A program made the translations under genes and the position numbers. The notes beneath the pieces were generated by a model. That model saw only the letters and a program-made list of their open reading frames with translations. It ran no database searches and was not told where the DNA came from. Below are positions 12,079 through 41,971 of a stretch of 64,000 nt of DNA, piece after piece. Each line of letters starts with the position of its first letter. Position 1 is the stretch's first letter. Source of the stretch: an uncultured Mycoplasma sp. (lineage in GTDB: Bacteria > Bacillota_I > Bacilli_A > RF39 > UBA660); assembly GCA_945947035.1 (NCBI GenBank), contig CAMEXD010000005.1, positions 3,122 to 67,121 of the forward strand. Reading direction: 5' to 3'.

Positions 12079-12960
12079 TTATTTATCATAATTAATAGTT
12101 TCAAGTATTCTATTTAAATCTTGATCATTAGCAAAATTAATAATAAGTTTATTATTAGTAAGTTTTACTTTTGTACCTAAATAATCAGATAATTCTTTTT
12201 CTAAGTCTATATATTCTCTTGATTTTTGTTTTTGCTCTACTTTATGTCTTCTTGGAATATCAGAATTTCTTGTTAATTCTTCAAGTTCTCTTACACTTAA
12301 ATTTTCATTTTCAATCTTATTTGTCAATTCAATTATCTTATTTTCATCATCTAATTTTGATAAGACTCTTGCGTGTCCCATAGTTAATTTATTTTCAGAA
12401 ATTGATTTTTTAACAACATCAGGTAGTGTTAAAAGACCTAAAAGATTAGTGATATGGCTTCTACTTTTATTAACTCTTTTAGCAACTTGTTCTTGAGTTA
12501 AGTTAAGCTTATACATAAGATTTTTATAAGCATTTGCTTCTTCAATAACATTTAAATTTTCTCTTTGAAGATTTTCTAAAATTGCTATTTCCATCATTTC
12601 TTCATCAGTAAAGTTTCTAATAATCGCAGGTATTGTTTCTTTTCCTGCTCTTATTGAAGCACGATATCTTCTTTCTCCTGCAACGATGTCATAACCTTTA
12701 ATACTTTTTTTAACAATAATTGGTTGAAATACACCATGTTCTTTTATTGATTCAGCAAGTTCTTCTAAAGCATCCTCATCAAATACTTTTCTTGGTTGAT
12801 ATGGGTTTGGTCTTAAATCTTTGATTGGAAGTTCTTTAACTTCATCAATACGTGCTGTTTCCATAATTTTTTCTTCTAAGTTGCTATAACTTACATCTTC
12901 AATATTAAATAATTCTTCAAGCCCTCTTCCTAGAGCTTTTCTTTTACTCTGTTCTTGCAT
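12079..12960 (-). CDS. parB: chromosome partitioning protein ParB/Spo0J
   Basis: N-terminal KALGRGLEELF, ParB box GERRYRAS, and a ParB-type HTH segment NKSRSHITNLLGLLTLP...TMGHARVL. Confidence 0.93.
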   Translation of the reverse strand: MQEQSKRKALGRGLEELFNIEDVSYSNLEEKIMETARIDEVKELPIKDLRPNPYQPRKVFDEDALEELAESIKEHGVFQPIIVKKSIKGYDIVAGERRYRASIRAGKETIPAIIRNFTDEEMMEIAILENLQRENLNVIEEANAYKNLMYKLNLTQEQVAKRVNKSRSHITNLLGLLTLPDVVKKSISENKLTMGHARVLSKLDDENKIIELTNKIENENLSVRELEELTRNSDIPRRHKVEQKQKSREYIDLEKELSDYLGTKVKLTNNKLIINFANDQDLNRILETINYDK

Positions 12961-13735
12961 TTTTTTCTATCACCTCTTTGGCTAAATTTAAATAAGCTTC
13001 AGAACCTCTACTTTTTGGATCGTAAACAATTATTGGTTTACCATGAGATGGAGCTTCTGTTAGTCTTATTAATCTTGGTATTATAGTATTGTATACTTTA
13101 TCTTTAAAGTATTTTCTTATATCCTCAACTACTTCAATACTCATGTTAGTTCTTGCATCAAACATTGTAAGAAGTACTCCTTCAATTGAAAGATTTGGAT
13201 TAAGATTTTCTCTTGTATACATAATTGCTTTTAAAAGTTGTGTAATACCTTCAAGAGCAAAAAACTCACATTGTACTGGAATAATAACAGAATCACTTGA
13301 AGTTAAAGCATTTGTTGTAATAATTCCAAGTGCAGGTGGACAATCAATAATAATAAAATCATAGTCATCTTTTATCTTATCAATATGAATTTTTAATTGT
13401 TCAGCTTGAAGATAACTAGAATCATTTCTACTGTTGTCTCTTATTTCTATATCAATACCTGCTAAATTAATATTAGCGGGTAAAACATATAAATTTTTAT
13501 ATTTTGTTTTAATAATAACATCTTCAATTTCACTAGTATTATTTAAAACATTATAAATACTTTTATCAATATCACCTTTATTGATACCAATTCCTGTTGT
13601 AGCATTACATTGTGGATCTAAATCTACTAATAATACTTTTTTATTTAATATAGCTAGTGAAGCAGCAAGATTAATACTTGTTGTTGTTTTGCCTACTCCA
13701 CCTTTTTGATTAATCAATGATATAACTTTTCCCAT
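12944..13735 (-). CDS. parA: chromosome partitioning ATPase ParA/Soj
   Basis: Deviant Walker A motif NQKGGVGKTTTSINLA. Overlaps the parB start. Confidence 0.95.
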   Translation of the reverse strand: MGKVISLINQKGGVGKTTTSINLAASLAILNKKVLLVDLDPQCNATTGIGINKGDIDKSIYNVLNNTSEIEDVIIKTKYKNLYVLPANINLAGIDIEIRDNSRNDSSYLQAEQLKIHIDKIKDDYDFIIIDCPPALGIITTNALTSSDSVIIPVQCEFFALEGITQLLKAIMYTRENLNPNLSIEGVLLTMFDARTNMSIEVVEDIRKYFKDKVYNTIIPRLIRLTEAPSHGKPIIVYDPKSRGSEAYLNLAKEVIEKNARTE

Positions 13736-13842: not shown

Positions 13843-15078
13843 TTATCCCACATTTTTCTTATTTTTATCAATTTTTATTACAATTTGGTAAACGTTATCA
13901 AAGTCAAATTCTTCAGTTTCTATATTAAATCCAAATTTTTCAGTATTTTGAATAGCTTGTCTAAAATTATTAATAGCAAATCTCATATCGTAAATATCGT
14001 TATTATTAATAGTATTTACACTAGGTGTTTCAGTTACTACTTCAGGAATAGGTTGTTCTACTTTTTCACTATTATTTAATAAAGATTCTATCTTATTAAA
14101 TGCAGTATAAGCATTTTGATCACTATTATTACTTGTAAATTCATATTTTGGACCTTCATATTTAGGAACAGGTGCAACACTTTCTTCAACATGTTTTAAT
14201 TCATTAGATGTTGGAATATATGTGTTTTCTAAAATATCCTTATAAGGATCTTTTGGTAAATCTAAATCTTCATTTTGTTTTTGTTCAACTTGTTCAATAT
14301 CATCTTTTCTTAAATCAGCAAAAATATTTTTATTTATTGGTTTTTTTTCTGGTTCCTGATTAACAGGTGCAACAACTTTTGGTTCTACTACTATTTCTTT
14401 TACTTCATTTACATTTGGCACTTCAACATTTTTTGTTGGAACTTCTTCTTCTGGATATGTATTAGTATTTACTTTGCCAGTTAACATAGCAATCTCATCA
14501 TCAAGTTGCTTTACAGTCATTCTTTGAAGAATAATTTTTTCCAATAATTCTTTTTGTTTTACAGGATCTTCCATATTAAGTAAACTTCTAGCATGTCTTT
14601 CTGATATTTTTTCATGTAAAAGCGCATCTTGTACTTCAGGAATAAGATTTAAAAGTCTAAGTTTATTAGCAATGGCAGATTGTGATTTACCTAATGTTTT
14701 AGCAAGTTCTTCTTGAGTTAAATTATCTAATTTTAAAATTGTTTGATAGGTTCTTGCTTCTTCAATAGAAGTTAAATTCTTTCTCTGTAAATTTTCTAAA
14801 AGTGCAACTTTAGCAGCTTCTTTATCATCTATATTTCTAACAATCGCTGGAATAGTTGTTTTACCTGCAAGTTGTGAAGCACGAAATCTTCTTTCGCCTG
14901 CAACAATTTCGTATTTATCTCCTACTTTTCTAACAATAATAGGTTGAATAACACCATGTTCTTTAATTGATGTTGATAACTCTTGTAAATCAATATCATC
15001 AAACTTTTCACGTGGTTGAAATCTATTTGGTAGAACATCCGCTAATGATAGTTCAAATACTTCCTTTTCTAAGTTCAT
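13843..15078 (-). CDS. noc: Noc-type ParB paralogue (nucleoid occlusion protein) with a long internal low-complexity insert
   Basis: VLPNRFQPR and GERRFRAS boxes. The HTH reads LGKSQSAIANKLRLL...ISERHARSL, which matches B. subtilis Noc rather than Spo0J. The C-terminus FNIETEEFDFDNVYQIVIKI is Noc-like. About 165 aa of P/E/V/N-rich insert lies at ~13986-14481. An in-frame TGA sits just upstream of the ATG. Confidence 0.85.
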   Translation of the reverse strand: MNLEKEVFELSLADVLPNRFQPREKFDDIDLQELSTSIKEHGVIQPIIVRKVGDKYEIVAGERRFRASQLAGKTTIPAIVRNIDDKEAAKVALLENLQRKNLTSIEEARTYQTILKLDNLTQEELAKTLGKSQSAIANKLRLLNLIPEVQDALLHEKISERHARSLLNMEDPVKQKELLEKIILQRMTVKQLDDEIAMLTGKVNTNTYPEEEVPTKNVEVPNVNEVKEIVVEPKVVAPVNQEPEKKPINKNIFADLRKDDIEQVEQKQNEDLDLPKDPYKDILENTYIPTSNELKHVEESVAPVPKYEGPKYEFTSNNSDQNAYTAFNKIESLLNNSEKVEQPIPEVVTETPSVNTINNNDIYDMRFAINNFRQAIQNTEKFGFNIETEEFDFDNVYQIVIKIDKNKKNVG

Positions 15079-19913: not shown

Positions 19914-20270
19914 ATGCCAAGTGGTAGACCAAAAGGCGGTACAAATAAATACTGGTCACCAGAGGAAAAAGAAAAGATAGTCTTATATCATATAGAAAAT
20001 GAAATTGGTATGGACAAATGTGCAAAAAAATTTGGTATTTCTAGAGTGCAAATGTTTAATTGGGTTTCTTCATATAGAAATAAAGGAATAGAAGGTTTAA
20101 AGAACAAAAAGAAACCTGGTAATCCATTAAGTAAATATTCAGGTAAAAAGAATTTATCTGAAATGGAAAAACTTCAATATGAAAACATGAAATTAAGAAT
20201 TGAGAATGAACGATTAAAAAAAGGATACCTAGTGAAAGGAGATGGTTCAATTGTAGTATTCAAGAAATAA
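19914..20270 (+). CDS. IS3 transposase OrfA (HTH)
   Basis: 118 aa with an HTH region and a leucine-zipper-like LQYENMKLRIENERLKKG. The slippery A AAA AAG lies at 20216-20223. Confidence 0.85.
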   Translation: MPSGRPKGGTNKYWSPEEKEKIVLYHIENEIGMDKCAKKFGISRVQMFNWVSSYRNKGIEGLKNKKKPGNPLSKYSGKKNLSEMEKLQYENMKLRIENERLKKGYLVKGDGSIVVFKK

Positions 20271-21160
20271 AACAAAAAGAATTTGAAATCGTAGAAATAT
20301 TAAGTAAAGAATATTCAGTTAAATCATTATGTGAAGTAATGAATATATCAAGAAGTGACTATTATAAATGGTTAAAAAATAAGGAAATATTAAATAAATA
20401 TGAAATAAACCGTAGAGATTTAGAACCATTAATTAGGGATATTCATAAAAGAAAACCAAGTTATGGTTATCATAGAATAAATTACCTTATTCGTAAAGAA
20501 ACCGGTTGGGTTGTATCTGATAATTTAGTTCATAAAGTTTGCAAAATATTAAAAATAAGAAGTAAAGCAAGACACTATTCAATTTATAAGAAGCCTGGAG
20601 AAGAATCTATTAAATATCCAAATCTTATTAATAATAATTGGAATACTACGAGACCATTAGAAAAAATAACATCGGATACAACAATGATTTGGTTTAAAAA
20701 GCAAAGATATGATTGGACATATTATGTTGATGCATTTGATGATTCAATAATAGGTTCAGATGTTAAACCTTTCTATCATGGAGTTAGTATAACTAACCAT
20801 AGATTAGCTTTAGAGGATATGTTAAAAAGTAAAATAAAAAGAGGATATAAAAGCCAAGAAACTATTTTTCACTCAGATCAAGGCGCAATATATTCCTCAG
20901 TGGCATTTAATAATGCACATAAAGATTATAACATAACTAGGTCCATGTCGAGAATAGGAACTCCAACAGACAATCCAATAATTGAATCTAAAAATGGTTG
21001 GTTAAAGAAAGAAATGTATATTGATTTTAATCAAGATGATTATGAAACTGTTGAAGATTATATAAATGCAATAATATATGACCATAATTATTTAAGACCT
21101 AGTTATGCACTAAATTATAAAACCCCAATTGAATATAGAACTCAACTAGGGTTTCAATAA
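20216..21160 (+). CDS. IS3 transposase OrfB (DDE/rve), made as an OrfAB fusion by -1 frameshift
   Basis: The -1 frame is open from the A7G site through the listed ORF 20339-21160. DDE integrase core (HSDQGAIYSS ... PIIESKNGWLKKE). Confidence 0.8.
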   Translation, partial: KKRIPSERRWFNCSIQEIKQKEFEIVEILSKEYSVKSLCEVMNISRSDYYKWLKNKEILNKYEINRRDLEPLIRDIHKRKPSYGYHRINYLIRKETGWVVSDNLVHKVCKILKIRSKARHYSIYKKPGEESIKYPNLINNNWNTTRPLEKITSDTTMIWFKKQRYDWTYYVDAFDDSIIGSDVKPFYHGVSITNHRLALEDMLKSKIKRGYKSQETIFHSDQGAIYSSVAFNNAHKDYNITRSMSRIGTPTDNPIIESKNGWLKKEMYIDFNQDDYETVEDYINAIIYDHNYLRPSYALNYKTPIEYRTQLGFQ

Positions 21161-27748: not shown

Positions 27749-28183
27749 CTTGCACCTCCAAACTAATTCGTTATTATTATAATGAATTAATAGGGTAGTT
27801 GTCAACTTTTTTTGTTAATTTATTTTTTTTTATCCAATTTATTAACATAATTAAAACTTTTATTTTTAATATTAACAAACAAATTAACAATATATTGTTA
27901 ATAACTTACTTAGTTTTATCCTTATTTTATAATGGTTTTCAAAACTTTTTAACAAAATTAACAATTTTAATATTAACAAAAGTAACAGTTGTTAAAAATA
28001 TTAATAACTTTTTTGTTGAAATTTGTTAAAAACTAATTTACAATATATAAACAAAAGAAAAAAGTGGTTAATAACTTTGTTAATAAGCTTGTTAATAAAA
28101 ATTTGCTATTTAATTTTTTAACAATTTGTATTACAATTAATTTAGGTTTTGAAAAAAAATATTAGCGGGGGAAGTGGTATTTA
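27749..28183. promoter_or_regulatory. oriC left part / dnaA promoter region with clustered DnaA-box-like 9-mers
   Basis: Located between rpmH and dnaA. Repeated TGTTAATAA / TTATTAACA 9-mers (7/9 match to TTATCCACA) at about 27839, 27895, 28077 and 28089, plus near-copies. TTATCCAAT at 27831. Confidence 0.7.
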
Positions 28184-39767: not shown

Positions 39768-39777
39768 TTAAATACAA

Positions 39778-39793
39778 TGTTCCACGTGGAACA
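39778..39793. promoter_or_regulatory. parS: parS site 1 (perfect palindrome TGTTCCACGTGGAACA)
   Basis: Exact 16-mer, extended to the palindrome ACAATGTTCCACGTGGAACATTGT. Lies 11 nt after the gyrA stop. Confidence 0.85.
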
Positions 39794-39801
39794 TTGTATC
39801 T

Positions 39802-39850
39802 GGTCAATTGATGTATTAAAAACAAATCAATTGACCTTTATTTTTTTATT
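39802..39850 (+). terminator. gyrA intrinsic terminator
   Basis: GGTCAATTGAT-N13-ATCAATTGACC followed by TTTATTTTTTTATT. Confidence 0.8.
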
Positions 39851-39888
39851 TAATAAATAATATATAATGAAAAGTCAATCAAACATAA

Positions 39889-39904
39889 TGTTCCACGTGG
39901 AACA
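39889..39904. promoter_or_regulatory. parS: parS site 2
   Basis: Exact TGTTCCACGTGGAACA within the 20-bp palindrome AATGTTCCACGTGGAACATT. Confidence 0.85.
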
Positions 39905-39955
39905 TTATGTTATTATTTTAATTTAATATATAAGACAATTATAATTATGTGTCAA

Positions 39956-39971
39956 TGTTCCACGTGGAACA
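39956..39971. promoter_or_regulatory. parS: parS site 3
   Basis: Exact 16-mer. The extended palindrome is GTCAATGTTCCACGTGGAACATTGAC. Confidence 0.85.
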
Positions 39972-40061
39972 TTGACATTAAACTATTATTTATTAAGCTA
40001 TATTAATGTAATTTATTAGATTTATATATATAAAAATCAATTTAATGTTATTAAAGTATAA

Positions 40062-40077
40062 TGTTCCACGTGGAACA
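40062..40077. promoter_or_regulatory. parS: parS site 4
   Basis: Exact 16-mer within AATGTTCCACGTGGAACATT. Confidence 0.85.
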
Positions 40078-40097
40078 TTGAAATAAATATATTTTAT

Positions 40098-40126
40098 TTG
40101 ACAAATAATTAATAATAATATAGAAT
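40098..40126 (+). promoter_or_regulatory. sigma-A-type promoter of ffs
   Basis: TTGACA (40098-40103), a 17-nt spacer, then TAGAAT (40121-40126). The predicted start is about 40132-40134. Confidence 0.6.
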
Positions 40127-40132
40127 TTATAT

Positions 40133-40212
40133 TGTGCAACACAAATGTTAGAACCAGGTCAGAATCGGAAGATAGCAGCCTTAATAACCCCTTTGTGTGT
40201 GCACTTTTTTTT
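40133..40212 (+). ncRNA. ffs: small (4.5S-like, ~72 nt) signal recognition particle RNA with T-run
   Basis: Domain IV core ACCAGGUCAGAAUC-GGAA-GAUAGCAGCC matches the conserved SRP RNA motif (E. coli ACCAGGUCAGGUCCGGAAGGAAGCAGCC). The closing helix is GUGCAACACAAA / UUUGUGUGUGCAC, followed by T8. Confidence 0.85.
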
Positions 40213-40221
40213 GAGGTAATT

Positions 40222-40629
40222 ATGGAAGAAAAATACGTTGAAAAATTATTATTAAAATGCAAAAAAGCAATAAAAACAGGTAATATTCCTATAAGTGCAT
40301 TAATTGTAAAAAATAATAAAATTATATCAATTGCTTATAATAAAAAAGAAACTAGTAATATTTCACTAGATCATGCAGAAATTATTGCAATAAAAAAAGC
40401 TTGTAAAAAATTAAAGACTTGGAGATTAGATGATTGTGTATTATATACAACCTTAAAACCATGCAAAATGTGTGAAGGTGCAATAATTGAATCTAGAATA
40501 AAAAAAGTATATTATTTATTAGAATCAAATTACTATAAAAATAATTATGATATATCTTATGAAAAATTAAAATTAAAAAATAATTATGATAAAATATTAA
40601 AAGATTTTTTTGCTAATATTAGAAAGTGA
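40222..40629 (+). CDS. tadA: tRNA-specific adenosine deaminase TadA
   Basis: CDA zinc motifs HAEIIAI and PCKMCEGAI. The start was set at MEEKYVE behind GAGGTAAT. The listed longer ORF (from 40132) runs through ffs. Confidence 0.9.
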   Translation: MEEKYVEKLLLKCKKAIKTGNIPISALIVKNNKIISIAYNKKETSNISLDHAEIIAIKKACKKLKTWRLDDCVLYTTLKPCKMCEGAIIESRIKKVYYLLESNYYKNNYDISYEKLKLKNNYDKILKDFFANIRK

Positions 40630-40632
40630 CAA

Positions 40633-40648
40633 TGTTCCACGTGGAACA
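40633..40648. promoter_or_regulatory. parS: parS site 5
   Basis: Exact TGTTCCACGTGGAACA, 4 nt after the tadA stop. Confidence 0.85.
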
Positions 40649-40722
40649 TTGAAAATTACACAATAGTTAACAAGTTCCGAAAAGTGTGCTATCAATACAA
40701 AAAGGTGGAGATAATCGCCAAT

Positions 40723-40738
40723 TATTTCCCGGGAAATA
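40723..40738. promoter_or_regulatory. NBS-like site 1 (TATTTCCCGGGAAATA)
   Basis: Exact match to the palindromic Noc-binding site (core ATTTCCCGGGAAAT). Sits within the 22-bp palindrome AATTATTTCCCGGGAAATAATT. Confidence 0.75.
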
Positions 40739-41024
40739 ATTTTTGCTATATTAAAATGCTTTAATATATAAAATAATGATTTTAAAAAAATAAAATTTTA
40801 ATAGTTAATATTAACATATCAATATAAAATAATAATATGTTATTTTAAAATTATTTGTTTATATTTTTAAATTTTTTGCTATGTTAACAATAATGTTATT
40901 TTAGATGTTATAGGTATTATAAATTCTAATTTATTAATATTTATAATTTAAAAACAATTAACTAAATGCTAACAAGTTCTAAAAAATGTGTTGTCAATAC
41001 AAAAAAGTGGACAAAATCGCCAAT

Positions 41025-41040
41025 TATTTCCCGGGAAATA
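41025..41040. promoter_or_regulatory. NBS-like site 2
   Basis: Exact TATTTCCCGGGAAATA, 302 bp after site 1. Confidence 0.75.
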
Positions 41041-41300
41041 ATTTTTATTATAAATTGATTATATTTTAATTAATGCTTTTTTATATTATTATTGTTAATA
41101 AAAATGTACAATACTATATAAACATTAAAATAATAATTACAGCTTTAGATCAAAATTAAACTGCCTATTATTTATTCAATAAAATTAACATTGATTTTTG
41201 CTATATTAACTATAGTTAATTTTAAAAAAGCAATTAACCAATTGCTAATAAATTCTAAAAAATGTATTGACAATACAAAAAAGTGGAGAAAATTGCCAAT

Positions 41301-41316
41301 TATTTCCCGGGAAATA
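41301..41316. promoter_or_regulatory. NBS-like site 3
   Basis: Exact TATTTCCCGGGAAATA, 276 bp after site 2. Confidence 0.75.
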
Positions 41317-41560
41317 ATTTTTGCTGGGAAAATATATAATAAATATTAAAAAATATTAATAACAATAATTAATGTATATATACAAAATGGTTATTAATTA
41401 ATATTACAAATATTAATTGTTATTGATGTATTATAAACTATCTTATTTACTAAAATATTGTTATAAAATGAAGCTTTATAATTTTAAAATTAATTAGCTA
41501 AATGTTAACAGATTCTAAAAAATGTATTGACAATACAAAAAAGTGGAGAAAATCGCCAAT

Positions 41561-41576
41561 TATTTCCCGGGAAATA
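41561..41576. promoter_or_regulatory. NBS-like site 4
   Basis: Exact TATTTCCCGGGAAATA, 260 bp after site 3. Confidence 0.75.
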
Positions 41577-41855
41577 ATTTTTGCTAGGGAAATATTTTAA
41601 TATTTAAAGTATTGGTTTGAAAAAATTGATTTTATTTAATAGTTAATATCAATATAAAATAATAATATTTTATTTTAAAATTATTTGTTTATATTCTTAA
41701 ATATTTTATTATGTTAACAATAATGATATTTTAGACATTATACATATTATAAATTCTAAATTATTGATATTTATAAATCAAAATTTAATTAACCAAATGT
41801 TAATATGTTCTAAAAAATGTATTGACAATACAAAAAAGTGGAGAAAATTGCCAAT

Positions 41856-41871
41856 TATTTCCCGGGAAATA
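41856..41871. promoter_or_regulatory. NBS-like site 5
   Basis: Exact TATTTCCCGGGAAATA, 295 bp after site 4 and about 100 bp upstream of dnaX. Confidence 0.75.
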
Positions 41872-41971
41872 ATTTTTGCTAAAAAAAATATAATTTAAAT
41901 ATAAATCTTATTTTATTTTAATTCTTTTAATGATATAATATTTATATGTTGATTTTTGAAGGGGGGATAAA

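Follow-up and report, generated by a model that had tools for sequence, protein, structure and literature searches.

Adjacent parS and Noc-binding-site arrays near the presumed replication origin of an uncultured bacterium, a candidate loading zone for two ParB-family paralogues

Why would the DNA sites of two ParB-family proteins lie side by side in a single short interval near a replication origin? This question is raised by a 64,000-nucleotide stretch of contig CAMEXD010000005.1 (positions 3,122 to 67,121; assembly GCA_945947035.1 of an uncultured Mycoplasma sp.; hereafter the window, ~24% G+C), in which the 2.1-kb interval between gyrA and dnaX carries both parS, the site of the partition protein ParB, and the Noc-binding site (NBS). 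Noc is the textbook example of a duplicated ParB that has acquired a new DNA specificity, a membrane anchor and chromosome-wide sites from which division is policed. A preliminary description of this DNA had counted five copies of each site in the one 2.1-kb locus, and the exact counts and positions hold. We consider it probable that the gyrA–dnaX interval serves two paralogous clamps dependent on cytidine triphosphate (CTP) as a composite loading zone close to the origin, and that the role of the Noc-like protein is specific to the origin.

With respect to parS, the 16-bp sequence TGTTCCACGTGGAACA is present in five exact copies that start at 39778, 39889, 39956, 40062 and 40633, all of which match the general parS pattern, the 16-bp palindrome TGTTNCACGTGNAACA, without deviation. 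The chance level is 0.11 matches per shuffled window with up to two mismatches allowed, the observed count was reached in 0 of 100 shuffles, and no parS was found in the 64-kb window outside the gyrA–dnaX interval at this same tolerance. The first copy (39778..39793) lies 10 nt past the gyrA stop (39767) as the core of a 28-bp perfect palindrome (39772-39799), the second (39889..39904) is the core of a 30-bp palindrome (39882-39911), and the third (39956..39971) that of a ~26-bp palindrome (about 39953-39974). The fourth (40062..40077) is found ~20 bp 5′ of a promoter-like site (TTGACA-17-TAGAAT, 40098-40126) preceding ffs, the gene for the small signal recognition particle (SRP) RNA (40123..40221, plus strand; RF00169, 59.9 bits). 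Although it sits between parS sites, ffs is a bystander and no component of the parS/NBS system. It is followed by tadA, encoding tRNA adenosine deaminase (40222..40629, plus strand), which is flanked by the fourth and fifth parS copies; the latter (40633..40648) starts 4 nt past the tadA stop, and parS is likewise immediately 3′ of the tadA stop in two relatives (L121 and L124).

The NBS core ATTTCCCGGGAAAT also occurs as five exact copies (starts at 40724, 41026, 41302, 41562 and 41857), compared with 0.21 matches in a shuffled window; five were reached in 0 of 100 shuffles, and no NBS was detected elsewhere in the 64-kb window with up to two mismatches allowed. Each core is part of a complete 16-bp TATTTCCCGGGAAATA (40723..40738, 41025..41040, 41301..41316, 41561..41576 and 41856..41871), the very DNA used in the paper describing the Noc–NBS co-crystal of Bacillus subtilis, and all five extend to the 22-bp perfect palindrome AATTATTTCCCGGGAAATAATT (40720-40741 for the first copy). 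The resulting order is gyrA, four parS, ffs, tadA, one parS, five NBS and dnaX (41972), with 75 bp from the fifth parS to the nearest NBS core. Site and gene coordinates thus confirm both the order and the gap that had been proposed.

The NBS copies are embedded in a larger repeat. Specifically, each is located at the 3′ end of a unit of ~95 bp (u1, 40655-40750; u2, 40957-41052; u3, 41233-41328; u4, 41493-41588; u5, 41788-41883), the units are separated by AT-rich spacers of ~180 bp, and the fifth NBS lies ~100 bp before the dnaX start. The 28 columns around the NBS are invariant in all five units, and the remaining unit sequence varies. Spacers 40816-40953 and 41646-41783 share 90% identity, and a recent segmental duplication has therefore contributed to the array. 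Two other species, with DnaX proteins 77-82% identical to that of the window, likewise retain the NBS together with its left flank. A second palindrome in the units, TGTATTGACAATACA, was considered as a site for a third protein and set aside, being perfect in just three of the five units and non-palindromic in L121 and L124.

Both presumed binders of these sites are encoded in the window, in a single minus-strand noc–parA–parB cluster downstream of rsmG. ParB/Spo0J (12079..12960, 293 aa) is the presumed parS binder. It carries an N-terminal KRKALGRGLEELF peptide of the ParA-stimulating type, a GERRYR version of the CTP-binding box, and R-L-T-G at the specificity positions (within KSRSHITN...TMGHAR), which is the parS type (R173/G201); the adjoining gene (12944..13735) encodes the partition ATPase ParA/Soj. 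The paralogue (13843..15078, 411 aa) is the presumed NBS binder, with a Noc-type C-terminal domain and the CTP box AGERRFRA, so that the GERRxR motif is kept in both proteins. It is best matched by the Noc structures 7NG0, 7NFU and 7OL9 (205 bits versus 175 for Spo0J, 6SDK), and alignment to these structures gives GKSQSAIANKLRLLNL...SERHAR, that is, Q-K-N-R at the four specificity positions. Jalal et al. 2020 (PMC7383237) found that Q173 and R201 together with one permissive Lys, at either 179 or 184, switch ParB to NBS, bases 1 and 6 of which are read by Q173 and R201, respectively. The pairing of parS with ParB and of NBS with the Noc-like protein is therefore well grounded as a prediction from specificity residues, and the earlier proposal of two paralogues with diverged specificity is upheld at this level.

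The designation of the paralogue as Noc requires more care. Its NBS-type residues and GERRxR box support the name, whereas its N-terminus and its score on the NCBIfam model TIGR04285 (nucleoid_noc), which falls below the cutoff, do not. Canonical Noc has ~26 further N-terminal residues comprising a 10-aa membrane-targeting helix, a second helix and a loop (PMC8429893). In the window, the open reading frame (ORF) begins only 16 aa before the PNRFQPR motif, an in-frame stop lies 21 nt upstream, and residue 5 of the protein aligns with residue 26-28 of the Noc chains; the amphipathic membrane-targeting helix was accordingly not found, as judged from the ORF start and the alignment to Noc structures. 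The same 16-residue N-terminus is present in 119 of the 120 closest homologues, which start MNLEKEVFEL, and its shortness indicates that these proteins lack the ~26-aa α1–α2 region. QKNR is found in 111 of the 120. The protein is thus a non-canonical Noc with respect to nucleoid occlusion, and the "Noc domain" of the preliminary description should not be equated with a membrane-tethered division block, given the missing helix and the low TIGR04285 score. The sporulation phenotypes suggested there found no support in the present analysis.

A second departure concerns the linker that joins the DNA-binding domain to the C-terminal domain; it is acidic, rich in proline and variable, and accounts for the variation in homologue length (259-580 aa). 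An AlphaFold2 model of the window's protein is confident for the N-terminal and DNA-binding domains (1-200) and the C-terminal domain (359-403), and predicts the linker (~205-358) to be disordered save for short helices. Three motifs recur across homologues, NIFxxLR, YKDILE and AFNKIESLLN (residues 248-258, 278-284 and 324-335), and are modeled as isolated short helices. The NIFxxLR helix (INKNIFADLRK) has a hydrophobic moment of 0.54 and a net charge of +2, the membrane helix of B. subtilis Noc giving 0.43 on the same scale.

In terms of position on the chromosome, the window's GC skew and gene orientation both switch at ~28 kb, adjoining dnaA, and the spacer 5′ of this gene (27760..28180) is the likely origin (oriC). 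It contains 12 copies of TTGTTAA/TTAACAA, a heptamer with a window-wide frequency of 1.33 per kb that may be the divergent DnaA box of an AT-rich lineage; no TTATCCACA was found in the spacer at up to one mismatch. The parS sites lie 11.6-12.5 kb from the dnaA start, and from the skew and orientation switch together with the repeats next to dnaA, the two arrays are placed ~12-14 kb from oriC. A cluster of DnaA boxes within the array region itself was considered and rejected, as 39.7-42 kb contains no TTATCCACA (up to one mismatch) and TTGTTAA is not enriched there.

A search of 185,579 species genomes for exact copies of the 22-bp NBS palindrome gave at least 120 loci, nearly all from uncultured small-genome gut "Bacilli", "Tenericutes" or CAG metagenome-assembled genomes (MAGs). 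The named genomes are filed by NCBI under Bacilli incertae sedis, and the clade is presumably the GTDB order RF39. Among the matches listed, 115 of 120 loci have homologues of the window's ORFs and hence share this oriC neighbourhood; the five exceptions are two Syntrophomonadaceae contigs, a 338-bp fragment and two others. Most listed loci fall in gyrA–tadA–dnaX–recR, others 5′ of dnaA, between rsmG and noc, or near pth and mfd. On the 24 contigs of at least 100 kb (~5.3 Mb in total), which include a complete circular chromosome of 1.52 Mb, the matches listed are confined to one 8-kb chunk each.

Proximity to parS is a common feature of these sites. Again among the matches listed, NBS occurs together with parS (TGTTNCACGTGNAACA) at 66 of 120 loci, in the gyrA–tadA–dnaX spacers, and 96 of the 264 NBS lie no more than 100 bp from a parS; the closest start-to-start distances are 22-37 bp. 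In several relatives the two sites are woven into one tandem array. Specifically, L112 shows strict alternation of 11 NBS and 10 parS with a 125-bp period and L003 alternates 6 NBS with 5 parS at 126 bp, similar arrays being found at L053, L046, L119, L113 and L114. The two closest relatives retrieved, L121 and L124 (DnaX 82% and 77% identical to that of the window), retain the order gyrA–parS (2-3)–ffs–tadA–parS (1-2)–NBS unit (two copies)–dnaX. The survey of the tadA–dnaX interval that had been called for therefore gave a positive result, and since the nearest relatives keep two units, the five in the window are best explained as an expansion of a two-unit ancestral state.

In at least 25 species the site is also located within a coding sequence. 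At 25 of 25 loci checked, an exact NBS is contained in an intact dnaX ORF, in a variable segment 1.0-1.15 kb from the ORF start (for example L001:3792, L015:4702, L055:6617 and L068:2818, with about 20 more); the window's own dnaX has no NBS. The site is translated as IISREII in some species and as NYFPGNN in others, corresponding to two reading frames. Retention of one palindrome in dnaX in two frames points to selection on the DNA site itself.

Building from these observations, a scheme for the locus can be proposed. ParB would nucleate at the five parS sites and the Noc-like paralogue at the five NBS sites, and each protein would close as a clamp on CTP and then slide outward. With both clamps sliding, their domains would adjoin, collide or intermingle within the same few kilobases beside oriC. 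The array of five NBS units would have arisen from the two-unit state by recent tandem and segmental duplication. The Noc-like protein would constitute a second component of the centromere complex, and may link the ParABS-segregated origin to another partner through the NIFxxLR motif of its linker. We infer binding, CTP-dependent spreading, domain overlap and cellular role from the sequences. An origin-specific task is nonetheless the most likely one for this protein, because it lacks the membrane helix and because its sites, at least in their extended form, cluster at oriC and not over the chromosome arms; candidate functions include anchoring, recruitment of a partner via the linker, control of initiation as suggested for Staphylococcus aureus Noc, and shaping of the ParB domain. 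Classical chromosome-wide nucleoid occlusion is less likely.

Several observations weigh against this proposal. Residue 184 of the Noc-like protein is Asn, a position at which Noc nearly always has Lys (PMC7383237), and the homologue at L076 reads Q-T-N-R, with the permissive Lys at neither position. On TIGR04285 the protein reaches 294.1 bits in a two-stretch match that includes the C-terminus, short of the cutoff of 315 (ParB scores 240 bits). The survey took in exact copies of the 22-bp palindrome, and NBS that agree in the 16-bp core alone may still be dispersed along the chromosome arms. In addition, ~70 bp to the left of each NBS are conserved in three species (40655-40720 and the corresponding parts of u2-u5 in the window, L121:9643-9710 and L124:2848-2915), and the unit may therefore serve more than Noc loading. 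The difference in unit number, two versus five, may be neutral, and the host organisms are uncultured.

The main alternative is that the protein performs ordinary nucleoid occlusion and that the position of its array beside parS is incidental. Canonical NBS are widely distributed (PMC7383237, PMC5540599), our view of this genome spans 64 kb, and the survey of at least 120 loci required the extended palindrome. The duplicated spacers show that the array has grown by recent duplication, and a lone NBS beside gyrA or gyrB is also encountered in Listeria and Ligilactobacillus (L082, L075). These points are outweighed in our assessment by the 115 of 120 listed matches in oriC-syntenic DNA, by the single-chunk matches, among those listed, on the 1.52-Mb complete chromosome and 23 further contigs of at least 100 kb, and by the strict NBS/parS alternation in many species, and we regard an incidental arrangement as unlikely. 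The same alternation, with sites 22-70 bp apart in many relatives, could instead reflect mutual insulation, in which the main effect of Noc-like dimers on the NBS would be to obstruct sliding ParB clamps, and vice versa, so that the dimers set the size of the partition complex and add no function of their own. ParB clamps are reportedly halted by tightly bound proteins, which would suit such a role. In the window, however, the two arrays are segregated and not interleaved, and the dedicated, conserved paralogue, with its long linker, conserved short motifs and domain for dimerisation at the C-terminus, looks equipped for more than passive blocking. Insulation as the main function is accordingly judged very unlikely, with the qualification that it overlaps with the loading-zone proposal and does not exclude it.

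A different type of explanation dispenses with Noc altogether. The 95-bp units might chiefly act as promoters or terminators, encode a small RNA or peptide, or be copies of a mobile element, the NBS-like palindrome then being a hairpin whose match to the Noc site is coincidental. A terminator-like TTTTTGCT does follow the palindrome on the plus strand, and the left flank reads, on the minus strand, TTG(A/G)C(G/A)-18 nt-TAT(T/A)(G/A)(T/A), with TTGGC(G/A)-18-TATTGT counted here in favour of this explanation and a perfect second hexamer in L124 (TTGACG-18-TATAAT). This flank could be a promoter directed at tadA, with its -35 element touching the NBS. The promoter-like sites of the window match at only 9 of 12 positions, however, and shuffles of the region already give ~31 such sites. 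As for an RNA, Rfam returned no match in the units at E ≤ 1, and folding is no better than that of shuffled sequences (z of -1.5 to 0), so a structured RNA or riboswitch was rejected; the window contains no tRNA genes. Small protein genes fared similarly, since the ORFs of 30-52 aa that cross four units are not preceded by a ribosome-binding site, and a start codon is missing from one unit. Moreover, a terminator, promoter module or mobile repeat would not be expected to leave the same 16 bp inside dnaX in two frames, and among the matches listed the site is found in over 100 genomes in which its flanking sequences are entirely different, near oriC in every case and mostly with parS alongside. 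We consider a coincidental match of this kind highly improbable.

With the composite loading zone retained as the preferred interpretation, its relationship to characterised systems can be described. The Noc–NBS system of B. subtilis and Staphylococcus aureus shares with the window the 16-bp TATTTCCCGGGAAATA, the Q173/K179/R201-type residues, the GERRxR box, the Noc-type C-terminal domain and the rsmG...noc–parA–parB neighbourhood. It differs in that the Noc-like protein has no membrane helix, resembling a natural N-terminal deletion of ~26 residues, has Asn in place of Lys at position 184, contains a disordered linker insertion of ~150 aa and scores below the TIGR04285 cutoff. The distribution of sites is also different. 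In published systems parS is restricted to the oriC region and NBS is widespread except near the terminus, ter (PMC7383237), with 40-70 canonical sites over half to two-thirds of the chromosome; in S. aureus, for instance, the 41 Noc sites all fall in the 700 kb to each side of the origin (PMC5540599). In this clade, the NBS, at least in its extended perfect form, occurs in tandem arrays beside parS within ~25 kb of oriC; in this form it is distributed much as parS is and shares the same stretches of DNA, unlike the published spread.

Turning to other precedents, the locus conforms to a chromosomal ParABS centromere in its five consensus parS ~12 kb from oriC, nearby ParA and ParB, ParA-stimulating peptide and parS-type residues, but its parS cluster is merged with the sites of a second clamp, and relatives alternate both within one tandem unit. 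The B. subtilis RacA–ram system offers a further likeness to the NBS array, since GC-rich palindromes around oriC recruit a protein that gives the origin a special address; RacA belongs to an unrelated family, is sporulation-specific and is no CTP clamp. A Noc with a reported origin-related role is that of S. aureus, which is described as regulating the initiation of replication and shows minor binding peaks around dnaA (PMC5540599); that protein, however, remains associated with the membrane, and its 41 sites are dispersed, form no arrays and are not paired with parS. In a literature search, neither parS/NBS arrays nor this clade were found to be described, and the NBS sequence was met only in known Noc, ParB and SlmA papers, in agreement with the earlier assertion that the arrangement is undescribed. 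The components are known; what is new is the adjacency or interleaving of the arrays, the restriction of the sites, at least in their extended form, to the origin and a helix-less, long-linker Noc.

Set against the textbook picture of Noc, then, an entire clade is different, having kept NBS specificity with the helix absent and the sites packed by parS at the origin, even inside an essential gene. If our interpretation is correct, a second function centred on the origin exists in the Noc branch, or was a stage in its history. We put forward tentatively a more specific version, that of a hybrid centromere in which the Noc paralogue would be a second subunit and no occlusion factor. A mixed ParB and Noc-like complex would load from interleaved sites, NIFxxLR possibly representing a relocated amphipathic helix that binds membrane or a partner, and the clade might preserve or re-create a ParB–Noc intermediate with switched specificity, centromere-like sites and no anchor. 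The locus would also constitute a natural system for two orthogonal CTP sliding clamps that load tens of base pairs apart, in which collision, insulation or co-condensation could be addressed, something that is hard to do in B. subtilis. Because the sites and proteins are small and well defined, the question is directly testable in vitro or in Escherichia coli despite the uncultured hosts.

A number of additional features were observed at these sites. The parS copies sit inside longer perfect palindromes whose outer arms vary among copies yet remain complementary, in the window as well as in L121 (8976-9003) and L124 (2724-2755). Such palindromes could form a hairpin or cruciform, act as terminators or reflect hairpin-templated repair; Rfam at E ≤ 1 gave over them weak, below-threshold microRNA matches only (E 0.05-0.5). 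In relatives, perfect DnaA boxes adjoin parS/NBS (L055:3990-4860, L044:7380-7900 and eight other loci), the series NBS–TTATCCACA–parS occurring three times in Clostridium sp. CAG:710. DnaA boxes within 40 bp of parS/NBS amount to 17 of 101, where no more than 4.4% is expected, which hints at a link to DnaA. NBS is also present in the rsmG–noc spacer directly 5′ of noc in L092 (5510) and L096 (1458), an arrangement that would allow autoregulation, and on the far side of rsmG in L076 (94) and L061 (4304); the window has no NBS upstream of noc.

With respect to the genomes surveyed, several MAGs titled "uncultured Muribaculaceae" or "Bacteroides helcogenes" (L012, L014, L015, L028, L029, L084 and others) carry the Bacilli-type gyrA–tadA–dnaX locus with GyrA 64-77% identical to that of the window, and these labels are therefore probably wrong. 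Elsewhere in the window, a two-ORF transposase-like element, which we read as IS3-type, lies beside rsmG (19914-21160, plus strand), giving the order rsmG, element, RNase R, a 635-aa ORF and noc, unlike relatives in which rsmG and noc are adjacent. The 20-22 kb composition bin that holds this element is the only bin to the left of dnaA with positive GC skew. Finally, a T-box leader (51592-51794, plus strand; RF00230, 118 bits) is located 5′ of the dUTPase and aminoacyl-tRNA synthetase genes.

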